Shown: piece after piece, positions 13,950 through 47,837 of the stretch
Position numbering within the stretch: position 1 is the stretch's first letter
How the letters are laid out: the number at the start of each line of letters is the position of its first letter
NCBI GenBank assembly: GCA_963718825.1
Contig: CAVQZZ010000002.1
Coordinates: 414,813 to 478,812, forward strand
Source of the DNA: an uncultured Acidobacteriota bacterium
GTDB lineage: Bacteria; Acidobacteriota; Vicinamibacteria; Vicinamibacterales; CAVVIG01
Length of the DNA: 64,000 nucleotides
Reading direction: 5' to 3'
Notes under the pieces: model-generated
The model's input: only the letters and a program-made list of their open reading frames with translations
Told to the model about the DNA's origin: nothing
The model's database searches: none
Translations under genes and position numbers: made by a program

Positions 13950-15086
13950 CTAGTCGGTCGCGTTCCCTGCATACAACGGCTCGGTGTCGAGCGTCTGCGG
14001 ACCGTGGTCGGTGCACACCGCGTATTTCGACGCGTACATCGAAACGCCCGCGTACTCGCCTTTGACGTTCAGGATATAGAAATTCAACCCGAAGTTCGGC
14101 TGCTTACGGTCGTTCAGCAGCCGCTTCTCGATCGTGTTCGACGCAACCCGCTTGAGCGCGCTCAAGCCGGCGTCTTTCGGGTGCGCACCGCGTCGCATCT
14201 CCTCGACGATGAAGAAGGAGCAGAGGTTGTAGAGATTCGCCTCGCCGCGGCCGGTCGATCCCGCGGCGCCGACGTCGCCGTCGACGTAGAGGCCGGCGCC
14301 CAGGATCGGCGAGTCGCCCGCCCGGCCCGGAATCTTCCACGCGAGACCGCTCGTCGTCGTCACACCGCAGATTTCGCCCTTGGCGTTGACGCCGTCGCAG
14401 TTGATCGTGCCGTAATAGTGCTCAGGGTCGACCAATCCTTCCGCAATCATGTCCATCGCGACCTGACGGTAGGCGATCTGGCGATCCTTCGGCGAGAGAT
14501 AGTGCAGCGGATCCGTGCGGCGCTTCCACTCGAGCCATTTCGCGCGCGAGTTCTCGGTGTTCAGATCGTCTTCAATCTTGAAGCCCATGCTGCGCGCGAA
14601 TTCCTGCGCGCCCTTGCCGACGAGCAGATGATGATCGGTCGAGTCCATGACGAGCTGTGCGATCTTCGACGGCGTCCGTACGCCTTCGATTTCCGCCACG
14701 CCGCCGGCGCGCTTTTTCGGCCCGTGCATGCAGCAGGAGTCGAGCTGCACGACGCCCTCGGCGTTCGGCAGGCCGCCGTATCCGACGCTGTCGTCCAGCG
14801 GATCGAGCTCGACGATGTTCACGCCGGCGATGAGCGCGTCGAGCACGTCAGAGCCGCCGACGATCATTTCGTGGGCGGTTTCCACGCACGTCTTCGAGCC
14901 GCCGTTCTTCGCTTTATTCCCGTTGGCCGCCGACACGACGACCGGCTTCACACTCTTCGGCGCCATCATCGTCGGTGCTTGCCCGAACGAGGTTTTCGGG
15001 ACCGCGGCAGCCGCCACAGCAGCGGTTGTCGTTTGAACGAATTCGCGGCGATTCAGTTTTTTCATGATGGTGCTGTCTTTCTTCAA
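13950..15086 (-). CDS. Exported Ntn-hydrolase of the asparaginase-2 / glycosylasparaginase family
   Basis: Tat-like signal KKLNRREFVQTTTAAVAAAAV. Autoprocessing-type site HYYG-TINCDG. GAAGSTGRGEA motif. Confidence 0.85.
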   Translation of the reverse strand: MKKDSTIMKKLNRREFVQTTTAAVAAAAVPKTSFGQAPTMMAPKSVKPVVVSAANGNKAKNGGSKTCVETAHEMIVGGSDVLDALIAGVNIVELDPLDDSVGYGGLPNAEGVVQLDSCCMHGPKKRAGGVAEIEGVRTPSKIAQLVMDSTDHHLLVGKGAQEFARSMGFKIEDDLNTENSRAKWLEWKRRTDPLHYLSPKDRQIAYRQVAMDMIAEGLVDPEHYYGTINCDGVNAKGEICGVTTTSGLAWKIPGRAGDSPILGAGLYVDGDVGAAGSTGRGEANLYNLCSFFIVEEMRRGAHPKDAGLSALKRVASNTIEKRLLNDRKQPNFGLNFYILNVKGEYAGVSMYASKYAVCTDHGPQTLDTEPLYAGNATD

Positions 15087-15228
15087 TGGCGGCGGGGCCC
15101 CACCCCCGCCGCGAACTGACGCCGATGCCTTCGCTCGGGCCTTCGCCCGCCCTCGCTCGGCATGGCCGCAGGCGCGTTTCTCTGCCCGAGCACTTGCCCA
15201 CCTGCCCCACCTGCCCCCGGAGCGCCGT
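15087..15228. repeat. Dispersed hairpin-repeat element, type A
   Basis: Starts TGGCGGCGGGGCCCCACCCCCGCCGCGAACTGACGCCGA (9-bp stem GCGGCGGGG/CCCCGCCGC, loop CCCCAC). The same 39 nt recur at 25213. It fills the whole gap between two genes. Confidence 0.85.
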
Positions 15229-16371
15229 TCAGGCGCTCGCTAGGATATTCGCCGAGATGATCATCCGCTGCGCTTCCGACGTGCCTTGATAAATTTCCGT
15301 CGCGCGCACGTCGCGAAACAGGCGCTCGACGACCGACCCGCGACGATACCCTGCCGACGCGAGAATCTGCATCGCCTTGTCCGCAGCCTTGTGCGCCGCT
15401 TCCGAGGCGGCGAGCTTGGCCATCGACGCTTCGAACCGGCACTGCTCCTGTCGATCTTTGGCGGCCGCCGCCTTCAGCGTGAGAAGACGAGCCGCGTCGA
15501 GCTCGGTCGCCATGTCGGCCAGCATCCACTGAATCGCCTGGTAGTTCGCGATCGGCTGCCCGAACTGCTCGCGCGCCTTCGCGTGGCGGATCGCTTCCGA
15601 GAGCGCCGCCTCGCCGATGCCGAGTGCCTGTGCCGCGATCGCGACGCGGCCGCCCTGGAGCGCCCACATGGCGAGCCGAAAGCCCTGGTCCACCGAGCCG
15701 AGCACCTGGCTGTCGTCGACGTCGAGATCGAGTTCGAGGTCCATGCAGCCGAGGCCGCGGACGCCGAGCGAATCGGCGCGCGCGGTCTTCGTGATGCCGG
15801 CGGCATTCATCGGCAGCAGGAATGCCGTGACCCCCTGCCCGCGGAGGTTCGGGCGCGTCGACGCAAACACGACCGCGACCGCTGCCGCGTCCGCGTTCGC
15901 TACCCACACCTTTCGGCCCGTGATGTGATAGCCGCGGCTCGTTTTCACCGCTTTCGTCTGCTGATTGGCGGCATCGGTTCCCGCGTCCGCCTCCGACAAT
16001 GCAAAGGCGCCGAGCGCCTCACCGCTCGCGAGCCGGCGCAGCCACTCTTCTTTCTGGGGTGCCTTCCCGGCGTGCGCGAGCAGCTCCGCGACGAGCGAGT
16101 TCGTCACCGACAGCGACACGGCGACCGTAGCGCTGGCGTTGGCAATCGCCTCGATCGCGAGCGCGTAGGAAATGTAGTCGCGGCCAAGGCCGCCCCAGGC
16201 AGTTGGAATGGCGACGCCGTAGAGGCCATGCGAAGCCGCCGCCTTCATCACGTCCGCGGGGTAATCGCCCGAGTCGTCTATCGCGGCGGCGCGCGGCGCG
16301 ACCACTTCGCGCGCGAACGCCTCGATCTTGGTTTTGAATGCCTGCTGTTCGGCCGTCAGCTCGAGAATCAT
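15229..16371 (-). CDS. Acyl-CoA dehydrogenase
   Basis: Intact 380-aa ORF with ACAD architecture (MILELTAEQQAF..., YQGTSEAQRMIIS C-terminal motif). Confidence 0.92.
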   Translation of the reverse strand: MILELTAEQQAFKTKIEAFAREVVAPRAAAIDDSGDYPADVMKAAASHGLYGVAIPTAWGGLGRDYISYALAIEAIANASATVAVSLSVTNSLVAELLAHAGKAPQKEEWLRRLASGEALGAFALSEADAGTDAANQQTKAVKTSRGYHITGRKVWVANADAAAVAVVFASTRPNLRGQGVTAFLLPMNAAGITKTARADSLGVRGLGCMDLELDLDVDDSQVLGSVDQGFRLAMWALQGGRVAIAAQALGIGEAALSEAIRHAKAREQFGQPIANYQAIQWMLADMATELDAARLLTLKAAAAKDRQEQCRFEASMAKLAASEAAHKAADKAMQILASAGYRRGSVVERLFRDVRATEIYQGTSEAQRMIISANILASA

Positions 16372-16530
16372 TTCTTACTGCTCGCGGGGCCCCACCCCCG
16401 CTCGATGACGCCTTCGCGCCGTCGCGCTCGGCGTTTCTAGAACAGAACGTCGCAGACGGAGCCGCGCCATTCTTCATGGCGCCTTCGCGCTGCGGCGCTC
16501 GGCATTTCCAGAACAGAACGTCGCAGCAGG
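16372..16530. repeat. Dispersed hairpin-repeat element, type B: head plus two tandem modules
   Basis: Head TTCTTACTGCTCGCGGGGCCCCACCCCCGCTCGATGAC, then two ~70-nt modules each containing CGCCTTCGCGC...GCGCTCGGC and CCAGAACAGAACGTCGCAG. Related copies at 32141 and 36619. Confidence 0.85.
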
Positions 16531-24708: not shown

Positions 24709-26620
24709 TTAAGGCCGGCTCGCGAAAAACGCAAGAACGGCATCGGCCGTTTTTGCGCCGACGGCGGCCGCAAGCTCTTCGCGCGTCGCGCGGCGCACGC
24801 CGGCCAGACTGCCGAACGTCGTGAGCAGCGTGCGGCGCCGGCGCGGACCAATGCCAGGCACGTGATCCAACTCCGAGCGAAGATCGCGGATCGTCCGCGC
24901 CTTGCGGTGAAACGTGACCGCGAAGCGGTGTGCTTCGTCGCGAATGCGCTGAATGAGGAGGAGCGCCGGATCGGTCGCGCTGAGCGCGATCGGATCCATG
25001 TTGTCGCGCGTGAAGATCAGCTCTTCCTTCTTCGCGATTCCGATCGCCATGAGGTTGGCGAGTCCGAGTTCCTCGAGCGCGGCGTACGCAGCCGAGAGCT
25101 GTCCCTTGCCGCCGTCGATCAACACGAGATCGGGAAACGGACCGCCCTGCTCGAGCAATTTGCGATAGCGCCGCAACACGACCTCATGCATGGCGGCGAA
25201 GTCGTTATTCACTGGCGGCGGGGCCCCACCCCCGCCGCGAACTGACGCCGACGCGTCGTCTCGGATGGCCATGTCCTCGACGCCGCGTGGCCGCAGGCGC
25301 TGAGTATCGGTTCCAGTTCCGCCTCTAATCCGGAATTTTCGGTACTCGCTGCGGCGCATGCGGCCGTCTTCGCACACCACCATCGACGCGACGGTCTCGC
25401 TGCCCTGGATCGTCGAGATGTCGAAGCATTCGATCCGTCGCGGGATCGCGGAGAGAGCCAAGACCGCCTGCAGCGTCTCGAGCGCGTCGTACTGCGCAGC
25501 GGTCGTCTGGTTGAAGCGCGTCTGATACGCGAGCGCCGCGTTGCGGTTGGCCAGCTCCACCATCGATCGCTTGTCGCCGCGCTGCGGCACGAGGATTCTG
25601 ACCTTGCGGCCGGCGCGCTCCGATAGCCAGCTTTCCAGCGCATCGCGGTCGACCGGCTCCGAAGGCACGTGTATCTCTGGCGGCGCGACTCGAAGCTCGT
25701 AGAACTGCTGCAGCGCGGCTTCGAGCACCTCGCCCTCGCTGGACCCGACGATGGCGTCCTCTGTCCCGAGCTCGACGCGCTCGACGACGCGGCCGCTCCG
25801 GACCTCGAAGATCTGGATGACGACGCCGCCGGGGCCGAGCTTGAGGCCGAAGACATCGCGATGGCCGAGCGCCGCCGTCGCCATCTTCTGCTGACGATCG
25901 TGCAGCGCCTGGACGGTCCGCATCGCGTCGCGCGCCTGCGCGGCTTCTTCGAATCGCTCGCCGGCGGCGGCATCCAGCATCCGGCCGCGCAGCGTCTTGA
26001 TCAGCTCGTCGTTCTTCCCTTCGAGAAACAGCTGCGTCGTTTTCACCGCGCGCCCGTAGTCCTCGGGCGAGCACATCGCTTTCAACGCACGGCGCGATGC
26101 AGCGTTTGATGTCGTACTCGAGGCACGGCCGCCCGCGTTTTCCCGTGATGACCTCGTTGCACGATCGCATGCCGAACAGCCGATGCGTCAGCGCCATCGT
26201 CCGGCGCGCGAAGTGCGCCGGGAGGAACGGGCCGGCGTAGAAGCTGCCGTCGCGTTCGACGCCTCTTGCCACGAGCACGCGCGGAAACGGCTCGTTGGTG
26301 GTGAGCTGCAGATACGGGTAGTTCTTGTCGTCGCGCAGCAGGATGTTGTACTTCGGCGTGCGCTGCTTGATGAGATTGTTTTCGAGCGCGAGCGCTTCGA
26401 CCACCGAATCGGTGACGATCACCTCGACCCGTGCGACCTCCTCGAGGAGCGCATCCGTCTTCGCGTCGCCGCCGTAGGCGCCAAGGTAATTGCGCACGCG
26501 GTCGCGGAGCGAGCGGGCTTTGCCTACGTAGATCGTCTCCCCACGCGCGTTCGAGTACAGATACACCCCGGGCTGCTCCGGCAGTCGTGCAATCTGCTCC
26601 TTGAGTTCGTGGATGGCCAT
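24709..26620 (-). CDS. uvrC: Excinuclease ABC subunit C; frame break near 26090 and an in-frame ~39-codon repeat-element insertion
   Basis: GIY-YIG N-terminus PGVYLYSNARGETIYVGKARSLRDRV (ORF 25325-26620). UVR domain, RNase-H-like and HhH C-terminus (ORF 24709-26085). Confidence 0.93.
25207..25325. repeat. Dispersed hairpin-repeat element, type A, lying inside the uvrC reading frame
   Basis: 25213-25251 TGGCGGCGGGGCCCCACCCCCGCCGCGAACTGACGCCGA is identical to 15087-15125. GGCCGCAGGCGC is also shared. Corresponds to the extra UvrC peptide GTGTDTQRLRPRGVEDMAIRDDASASVRGGGGAPPPV. Confidence 0.75.
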
Positions 26621-34603: not shown

Positions 34604-34739
34604 GTGCTCCTCATCTCTCCCCGAACCGCGGTCCGGGGCAGGATTTGGCACCTGGACGCGGGCAATGCGCCCGCCGGTTGCCGTGGCGTCTTCGGGCCTG
34701 TCCCTCAGCCACTCTGGATGAAAAGTTCAGCTACTGATA

Positions 34740-36602: not shown

Positions 36603-36618
36603 CTGATTGACCTCATCA

Positions 36619-36812
36619 ATCCTCGCGGGGCCCCACCCCCGCTCGATAACACCTCGCGCCGTCGCGCTCGGTGTATCCAGAACAGAACGTCACCGCAGCC
36701 CGCCGGCCGATACCGCTTTCGCGGTGCAGCGCTCGGTGTATCCAGAACAGAACCTCACAGCGCGCCCCCTCCCGATACCGCCTTCGCACCGTTGCGCTCG
36801 CCGTAATCAGGA
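36619..36812. repeat. Dispersed hairpin-repeat element, type B: head plus three tandem modules
   Basis: ATCCTCGCGGGGCCCCACCCCCGCTCGATAAC, then modules GATA(A)C.CC..CGC....GCGCTCGGTGTATCCAGAACAGAAC(G/C)TCAC x2 plus a degenerate third. Lies between the sir start and the cobA end. Confidence 0.85.
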
Positions 36813-47761: not shown

Positions 47762-47837
47762 GCCGGCGTAGCTCAGTTGGTAGAGCAGCTGATTCGTAAT
47801 CAGCAGGTCACCAGTTCAAGTCTGGTCGCCGGCTCCA
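47762..47837 (+). tRNA. tRNA-Thr, anticodon CGT, encoded CCA
   Basis: Cloverleaf by hand: acceptor GCCGGCG/CGCCGGC, D arm GCTC-AGTTGGTA-GAGC, anticodon arm GCTGA-TTCGTAA-TCAGC, variable AGGTC, T arm ACCAG-TTCAAGT-CTGGT, discriminator T, CCA. Confidence 0.95.

Follow-up and report, generated by a model that had tools for sequence, protein, structure and literature searches.

The window analysed here is a 64,000-nucleotide stretch of contig CAVQZZ010000002.1 from an uncultured bacterium of the Vicinamibacterales (Acidobacteriota), and it carries on its minus strand uvrC, the gene for a DNA-repair protein. [quoted passage not shown] The repeat belongs to an uncatalogued, structurally constrained family in an abundant and poorly studied soil lineage. 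Further, the uvrC copy offers a natural experiment: it is borne in an essential-type repair gene across deep divergence, and it evolves as a hairpin and not as a protein. The question of whether in-gene repeats are passengers or regulators is thereby made testable.

A full-length repeat copy within uvrC

The features of the window on which the argument turns are as follows.

24709-26620, minus strand: uvrC (GIY-YIG, UVR, RNase H-like, endonuclease and HhH domains), 1912 nt, 1 mod 3; recognised by Pfam matches and synteny
25205-25300, plus strand (the forward orientation of the repeat, antisense to uvrC): full-length two-hairpin repeat of about 97 nt; blastn and covariance model
25215-25238, plus strand: hairpin 1 of the uvrC copy, a 9-bp G+C stem GCGGCGGGG/CCCCGCCGC with loop CCCCAC; from the fold
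25242-25296, plus strand: hairpin 2 of the uvrC copy, an imperfect stem-loop of about 55 nt; from the fold and pair counts, with coordinates taken from family alignment A3
25301-25323, minus strand: filler codons GGTGTDT and the boundary of a Q codon, between the canonical ...RIRG and the repeat
26073-26080, minus strand: frameshift site, AGCGATGTGC in the window against (A/C)(G/C)CGTGTGC or an equivalent in orthologs
15078-15175, plus strand: intergenic copy of the 97-nt repeat, 95.1 bits, between the acyl-CoA dehydrogenase stop and the asparaginase-2 start

The first-pass annotation of this DNA had observed that uvrC and an intergenic element at 15087 have a 39-nt string in common. A search of the window bears this out: the 39-mer TGGCGGCGGGGCCCCACCCCCGCCGCGAACTGACGCCGA has two exact matches, 15087-15125 and 25213-25251, both on the plus strand, and no further match with three or fewer mismatches is found in the window, where shuffled sequences lead one to expect none. 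The 9-bp stem around CCCCAC that was also described (hairpin 1) is indeed located at both sites, at 15089-15112 and 25215-25238, as is the further shared stretch, TGGCCGCAGGCGC, at 15162-15174 and 25288-25300. It had been feared that the likeness might prove shorter than it looked by eye; it is longer instead, and both sites align end to end to the 97-nt consensus of the family. The uvrC copy matches consensus positions 2-97 without gaps at 88.5% identity over 96 nt, and the intergenic copy (15078-15175) matches end to end at 85.9% (blastn). Against the family covariance model, the uvrC copy scores 111.8 bits (model positions 1-100) and the intergenic copy 95.1 bits. Thus, the central proposal, a palindromic repeat lying in frame inside uvrC, holds for a full-length member of the family. 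The element had been placed at 25207-25325; the site was right, but the bounds were not, as the 39-mer starts at 25213, the repeat spans 25205-25300 and the remainder, 25301-25323, is filler. Hairpin 2 of the uvrC copy has compensatory pairs relative to the family consensus.

Read on the minus strand, in the frame of uvrC, the copy translates to QRLRPRGVEDMAIRDDASASVRGGGGAPPPVNN, with hairpin 1 coding for GGGGAPPP. The whole of the extra peptide, GGTGTDTQRLRPRGVEDMAIRDDASASVRGGGGAPPPVNN, comprises 40 residues (25204-25323, minus strand) between YRKFRIR and DFAAMHEVV, and the predicted tryptic peptide across the insert junction is GGGGAPPPVNNDFAAMHEVVLR. An earlier count of about 39 extra codons without a stop therefore needs only partial revision: 40 codons are open and in frame, but they exceed the canonical loop by about 34-35 residues. 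The open frame is weak evidence by itself, because four of the six frames of the consensus, read directly, have no stop.

The repeat family

A census of the family was made by an exact scan for the 25-nt hairpin head, with one genome per species. Among the matches listed, the head occurs in at least 119 stretches, nearly all of them in Vicinamibacterales/Acidobacteriota metagenome-assembled genomes (MAGs), often several times per contig and sometimes at a spacing of about 96-104 nt. Two of the matches (L002 and L043) are in contigs binned as Bifidobacteriaceae and Betaproteobacteria MAGs; these are likely mis-binned Acidobacteriota contigs. Stacking 130 instances gave a consensus of about 97 nt with sharp boundaries, TTTTTTCACTGGCGGCGGGGCCCCACCCCCGCCGCGAACTGACGCTGATGCCTCGCCTCGGATTCCCATGTCCTCGGCTCGGCATGGCCGCAGGCGC; a blastn search of the fetched loci with it recovered 143 near-full copies. 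The unit consists of a 24-nt hairpin with 9 G+C base pairs, an imperfect second hairpin of about 55 nt, and conserved linkers.

The two hairpins are supported by covariation. In 96 aligned copies, 94.2% of the stem cells are paired, vs. 42-50% in slid controls, and 89 cells have changed on both sides, vs. 16.6 in shuffles, none of 500 shuffles reaching the observed number. Compensatory changes are found at 11 stem pairs in the same alignment; those in hairpin 1 include GGCGCTGGGG/CCCCAGCGC and GGCGCCGGGG/CCCCGGCGC. Orthologous intergenic copies are 77-90% identical, with a compensatory change in hairpin 1 between L028 and L034. A sister subfamily with the stem GCGTGGGG/CCCCACGC covaries as well, and it is found between genes at L080:6885-6911, L061:7486-7607 and L202:15355-15442, often near copies of the main family. 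The repeat matches no Rfam family, either in the window at gathering thresholds or in four repeat-rich loci at E <= 1, and we found no literature on this family or on such repeats in this lineage.

The 143 copies make up 114 loci: 17 hold 2-5 units arrayed head to tail, and the others a single copy; 140 of the copies lie outside genes. With gene context assigned by our own simple caller, based on G+C content at third codon positions (GC3), the neighbouring genes are co-directional at 66 of 82 assignable loci, convergent at 10 and divergent at 6. At 61 of the 82, the repeat sits between co-directional genes that read it antisense to its forward orientation; the other orientation accounts for 5. 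The messenger at these usual loci would present hairpin 2', hairpin 1' and then CAGUGAAAAAA shortly before the next start codon, which typically follows 0-40 nt downstream, while the previous stop codon is 0-100 nt upstream. The intergenic copy in the window has this typical placement, 54 nt past the stop of the acyl-CoA dehydrogenase gene (15229-16371, minus strand) and about 13 nt ahead of the start of the asparaginase-2 gene (13950-15065, minus strand). Such intercistronic copies are most likely transcribed as RNA hairpins, which may, as has been suggested for REPs, protect mRNA ends or act in processing or coupling. We considered and rejected an intrinsic terminator: neither strand, the transcribed one included, has a U-run after a hairpin, and a terminator scan made no call. 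On the forward strand a T-run lies ahead of hairpin 1, and on the transcribed strand an A-run comes after it.

The GTG of the repeat end CAGTGAAAAAA, or an abutting ATG, is at many loci the first start codon in frame with the gene that follows (e.g., L074:3788-3791, L024 and L004). These start codons lead gene callers to make N-terminal extensions and short spurious open reading frames (ORFs) over arrays (e.g., P0121 and P0129). The family thus has consequences for annotation, as does the frameshift that splits uvrC in the public record (see below).

Only three of the 143 copies (about 2%) are intragenic and in frame. Besides the one in uvrC, they are:

L027:6024-6116, in the orientation and reading frame of the uvrC copy: in-frame copy in an ABC-F ATPase, between ABC_tran and ABC_tran_CTD
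L072:644-737, in the orientation of the uvrC copy: in-frame copy in a winged-helix/PD40 protein, between domains

All three intragenic copies have the usual transcribed orientation. Four further candidates from an ORF screen (L006, L053, L058 and L108) were discarded as antisense shadows or false N-terminal extensions. The 40-residue insert was also compared by phmmer with 1.84 billion cluster representatives, which gave 14 matches. Inspection of five of them showed unrelated repeat proteins or spurious ORFs that run across repeat arrays; the remaining nine are 60-166 residues in length. An X-padded version of the peptide drew only two candidates from a 5.8-billion-protein index.

Taken together, the behaviour of the 97-nt repeat is in all likelihood that of a non-autonomous, high-copy element of the REP/MITE type in Vicinamibacterales (Acidobacteriota).

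The insertion site in UvrC

The insert interrupts the Pfam endonuclease-domain match of UvrC into two parts, and the solved structures of the C-terminal region of the protein (T. maritima, 2nrt; Geobacillus, 3c65) align as two blocks around it. In an AlphaFold 2 (AF2) model of the uvrC product, built from 22 sequences, residues 256-292 have no secondary structure and a predicted local distance difference test score of 24-29; they are flanked by a strand (residues 242-253, ...EYRKFRIRG) and a helix (294-313, DFAAMHEVV...). The question whether the insert maps to a surface loop thus has an answer, as far as the model goes: the insert is modelled as a disordered surface loop between strand and helix, at a position compatible with the host fold. 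Residues D222, D295, D324 and H386 are invariant in an alignment of UvrC sequences, and D222, D324 and H386 are of the catalytic type. Nothing that would point to an intein or an intron was seen in the segment: it is 96-120 nt long, matches no Rfam family and is modelled without structure.

Alignment with orthologs agrees with the earlier suggestion that the insert is lineage-specific. Among 51 UvrC loci from metagenomes with 48% identity or less to the query, the loop has 5 residues in 46 and 4-6 residues in 50. Among 23 Vicinamibacterales-like UvrC loci, also from metagenomes and 59-92% identical to the query, it ranges from 4 to 74 residues, and its DNA is usually palindromic. The palindromes differ. 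The sister subfamily occupies the loop in L136:2606-2692 and L141:679-765, orthologs of 59-62% identity, with the same right junction. Hairpins of a GGGATTC heptamer are in the loop of L120, L130, L131 and L133, where their arms read GIRDS and IPNPES, and other palindromes are there in L121, L123 and L132. Both the heptamer hairpins (L012:569-838) and the sister subfamily also occur between genes elsewhere. The host codons directly upstream of the loop, CGG ATT CGn GG (RIRG), resemble the heptamer, and microhomology may have helped the GGGATTC hairpins into the loop. In L200:11303-11441 and L206:3318-3456, a second perfect palindrome, e.g., CCCCAACGCGGC/GCCGCGTTGGGG, is nested in the loop of hairpin 1 and lengthens the peptide by 13-14 residues. 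The several families in one loop, together with these nested palindromes, suggest that existing hairpins attract further hairpins. In L122 (NAPPPVNN), P0006 and P0093, there are apparent deletion remnants of the 97-nt insert.

Age, inheritance and constraint of the uvrC copy

Seven orthologs from independent JGI, ENA and NCBI assemblies, 78-95% identical in protein sequence, carry the same insert in an intact uvrC of 632-649 residues. They share the gene order CDP-alcohol phosphatidyltransferase, uvrC, M50 peptidase, TrpRS, ScpA/B. The worry that the insert might be an assembly chimera is thereby removed, the same insert and junction being present in all seven syntenic orthologs. Because these orthologs have it, the insert is neither recent nor private to this genome. 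The copies embedded in the syntenic uvrC genes score 76-114 bits, full-length, against the covariance model. The right junction, CCAGTGAAyAAC/GACTTC, is identical in all eight syntenic genes; the filler at the left junction varies among the eight in both length (2-7 codons) and sequence. The insert is open in every ortholog, and its lengths differ by multiples of 3.

The conservation of the insert has an unusual distribution over codon positions. At fourfold third positions, identity is 92% inside the element vs. a mean of 56% across 300 flanking codons; at all third positions inside the element it is 86%. When the comparison is confined to three phylogenetically independent pairs, 87 of 99 positions are identical vs. 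292 of 478 (Fisher p = 9e-8). The variable columns of the insert number 7, 11 and 10 at codon positions 1, 2 and 3, so that there is no third-position excess. Further, the stems show compensatory changes between the uvrC orthologs, and in hairpin 2 such changes separate the WIN/L203/L204 genes from a group of the L202 type. On the evidence of the aligned sequences, these patterns show that the insert is constrained at the nucleotide level and not at the protein level. The cause of this constraint would be a retained function of the hairpins in uvrC mRNA or DNA, gene conversion by the numerous intergenic copies, or templated quasi-palindrome correction.

A proposed history, and competing explanations

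We propose that one copy of the family entered uvrC in the usual orientation, at the loop that, in the C-terminal, RNase H-like endonuclease domain, leads from the third beta strand to the first helix. Since 4 of 6 frames are free of stops and the length has to be divisible by 3, a random insertion would leave a gene open in about 22% of cases. Translation would then add a disordered loop of roughly 35 residues, rich in Gly, Pro, Arg and Ala, and would leave the catalytic residues untouched. The insertion would be older than the split of the lineages whose UvrC proteins are 78-95% identical, and it would have been inherited with the gene thereafter.

Several considerations weigh against this history. 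Repeated replacement or conversion is possible, because the uvrC copies resemble the family consensus (85-91%) as much as they resemble the orthologous copies (83-93%), and the correlation between insert and flank distances is weak (r = 0.52). Templated quasi-palindrome correction can give compensatory changes in palindromes without selection. Mobility of the repeat is deduced solely from its dispersed distribution, because the usual marks of transposition are lacking. No mobilising transposase was found within the 8-kb loci of the two inverted-copy pairs examined, which flank dapA and prmC/HIT. Terminal inverted repeats of 15-30 bp were not seen in the consensus, whose ends, TTTTTTCACTGGCGGC and the reverse-complemented GCGCCTGCGGCC, have only CTG(G)CGGC in common. 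Four comparisons of filled and empty orthologous sites yielded no clean target-site duplication, whole spacers having been replaced. The orientation statistics depend on a crude gene caller. Finally, translation of the insert is not assured in this organism, because its uvrC is frameshifted.

An alternative that we regard as possible, if tentative, is that host selection keeps the hairpins because they act in cis on uvrC, the peptide being a tolerated by-product. Candidates for such an action are a site that governs the stability or processing of the mRNA, a point of pausing or attenuation, and a DNA site bound by a protein or by gyrase. The constraint on the insert favours this idea: its third positions have changed far less than neutral sites on either side, with no third-position excess, and compensatory changes preserve both stems among the uvrC orthologs. 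The insert also retains rare codons ending in A or T (TCA GTT, GGT, CCA) in a genome whose coding GC3 is about 0.8-0.9. The conservation of orthologous intergenic copies, with its compensatory change in hairpin 1, and the transcribed orientation that the in-gene copies share with the intergenic ones are likewise in keeping with a function. However, some relatives (L122, P0006 and P0093) have lost most of the insert and others have quite different palindromes, and therefore no particular insert sequence can be indispensable. Conversion or templated repair, moreover, could imitate such constraint.

Somewhat doubtful, in our estimation, is a second alternative, in which the loop is a landing pad subject to recurrent re-insertion or concerted evolution; the copies in each lineage would then be young, and their likeness to the consensus would stem from replacement. 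At least three dispersed repeat families (the 97-nt repeat, the sister subfamily and the GGGATTC hairpins) have reached this same loop across Vicinamibacterales-like UvrC genes, and the nested palindromes of L200 and L206 lie within it. The hairpin 2 variant of L202 is a common intergenic subtype, and the pattern of identities is star-like. Against these points stand several that argue for inheritance. WIN, L203 and L204 have in common private hairpin 2 variants, absent from the 96 aligned intergenic copies, which points to vertical descent in this clade; so does the resemblance of these three copies, at 92-93% to one another vs. 88-89% to the consensus. The right junction is identical in all eight genes, and in L200-L202 there is no other copy within 10 kb on either side of uvrC.

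A bolder combination of these two ideas, which we think unlikely, is that the UvrC loop of Vicinamibacteria is an active landing pad whose embedded hairpins are selected as nucleic-acid structure, dual-coding, and control the fate of uvrC mRNA or local DNA topology. If it were true, it would, taken with the REP insertions described for uvr genes in other phyla, suggest that REP-type hairpins are in general functionally connected with the genes of nucleotide excision repair.

Quite improbable is the proposal that uvrC is a pseudogene in this genome and the open frame through the repeat an irrelevant leftover. The gene had been taken as colinear with canonical UvrC outside the insert, a description that overlooked a single base, near 26076 (AGCG[A]TGTGC), which the seven orthologs do not have. 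This base splits the gene into two frames, the GIY-YIG part being in the frame that ends at 26620 and the other 458 codons at 24709-26085, and the public annotation has a product of 455 residues only. The extra base could reflect either an error of sequencing or inactivation of the gene in the very recent past. Dropping one base at the site restores ...CVESVCSPEDY..., and both parts are otherwise free of stops. The C-terminal 458 residues are 95% identical to P0002, and the N-terminal reading agrees by eye with ortholog sequences. The seven orthologs examined all have an intact gene that includes the insert. The source, further, is a single contig of 3.24 Mb, for which a single-base indel error is plausible if the assembly was made from long reads.

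The last alternative takes the peptide for a lineage-specific linker native to UvrC, and the intergenic copies for derivatives of uvrC or chance G+C-rich, low-complexity likenesses. It draws on the low complexity and order-wide variability of the loop, but it is very hard to credit: the near-full copies number 143, stand in intergenic contexts that are unrelated, and have defined ends and stems that covary; the chance expectation for the 39-mer is zero; and the ortholog-conserved peptide parts (RLRP, SASVRGGGGAPPP) are exactly the family-conserved DNA blocks.

Relation to known repeats

Insertion of a repeat into uvrC has precedents in other bacteria. Di Nocera, De Gregorio and Rocco (2013; PMC3733652) described many intragenic REPs in genes of replication and repair (UvrABCD, RecBCD, Pol I), with REPs listed within uvrA, uvrB, uvrC and uvrD (PMC3733652). 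Two of these are in uvrC itself: residues 438-446 of 639 in R. conorii (RC0864) and residues 550-585 of 779 in X. autotrophicus (Xaut_2344) (PMC3733652). The peptide of the X. autotrophicus REP had no match in the 5.8-billion-protein index. The novelty claimed for the finding is accordingly to be narrowed; it stands for the lineage and the family, with no Rfam entry and no paper found, but the phenomenon was already catalogued in 2013 (PMC3733652). Repeats inside uvr genes are known, and the new elements are the family, the order-wide hotspot in the loop and the nucleotide constraint on the in-gene copy. An independent phylum is hereby added to the unexplained bias of REPs toward uvr and other repair genes.

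The 97-nt repeat resembles REPs and bacterial interspersed mosaic elements (BIMEs) in many respects. These too are G+C-rich stem-loops present in many copies; most lie between ORFs that are unidirectional or convergent, rarely divergent, and they are plausibly transcribed; there are several families per genome, in tandem or grouped arrangement, and a minority lies in frame within genes. There are differences as well. A REP unit is a palindrome of 20-40 bp, whereas the 97-nt repeat is a composite of two hairpins with conserved single-stranded linkers. It has no GTAG tag at either end of the consensus; a CGTC that may or may not correspond to the published tag lies within GCGTCAGTTC, on the transcribed strand, 7 nt ahead of hairpin 1'. 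No REP-associated tyrosine transposase (RAYT, a Y1 HUH enzyme) was found beside it at the two inverted pairs in their 8-kb loci. Its copies, unlike REPs, are nearer to the downstream start codon than to the upstream stop. Lastly, we did not find conservation of the nucleotide sequence of an orthologous in-gene copy reported in PMC3733652.

The in-frame Rickettsia palindromic elements (RPEs) had been named as a parallel. In-frame palindromic repeats in Rickettsia genes, the RPEs of Ogata et al. (2000, 2002), are the classic case, and in-frame cases are known for several MITEs (PMC10969869). RPEs are palindromes of about 100-150 bp, in frame in housekeeping genes, with their peptides at fold-compatible positions (PMC10969869). 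The comparison is apt as regards the reading frame and the position in the fold, but not the habit of the element: nearly half of the R. conorii copies are within ORFs, as against 3 of 143 here, the rest being outside genes. Further, the hosts of the 97-nt repeat are free-living soil bacteria with large genomes, in another phylum. No sequence relationship is expected, and the uvrC copy retains its nucleic-acid structure over long divergence. Bacterial MITEs (ERIC, Correia/NEMIS, RUP and BOX) are similar in being intergenic, co-transcribed sequences of 70-300 bp with stable folds able to affect their neighbours, and some form in-frame fusions. The 97-nt repeat departs from them in that it has no convincing terminal inverted repeats, the comparisons of filled and empty sites showed no target-site duplication, and no related insertion sequence was identified.

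Other repeats in the window

Elsewhere in the window, the covariance model detects only two shorter sister copies:

16369-16445, plus strand: shorter sister repeat (about 65-75 nt) with the GGGGCCCCACCCC hairpin core of the 97-nt repeat; 26.2 bits, E about 0.003
36610-36685, plus strand: second copy of the shorter sister repeat, with the same GGGGCCCCACCCC hairpin core; 25.3 bits

The first fills the stop-to-start spacer between minus-strand genes, upstream of the start codon of the acyl-CoA dehydrogenase gene. Both are followed by TC(T/C)AGAACAGAACGTC, stretches that may be the 3' ends of paralogous genes. A tandem CACCTGCCC motif (gcccacctgccccacctgccccc) at 15190-15222 adjoins the intergenic copy of the 97-nt repeat, and in L108 a longer tandem repeat, translating as LPYLTH x4, likewise adjoins a repeat copy. 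The window has two gathering-level Rfam matches in all, a SAM riboswitch at 34608-34724 (minus strand, 84 bits) and a tRNA gene at 47762-47834 (plus strand).

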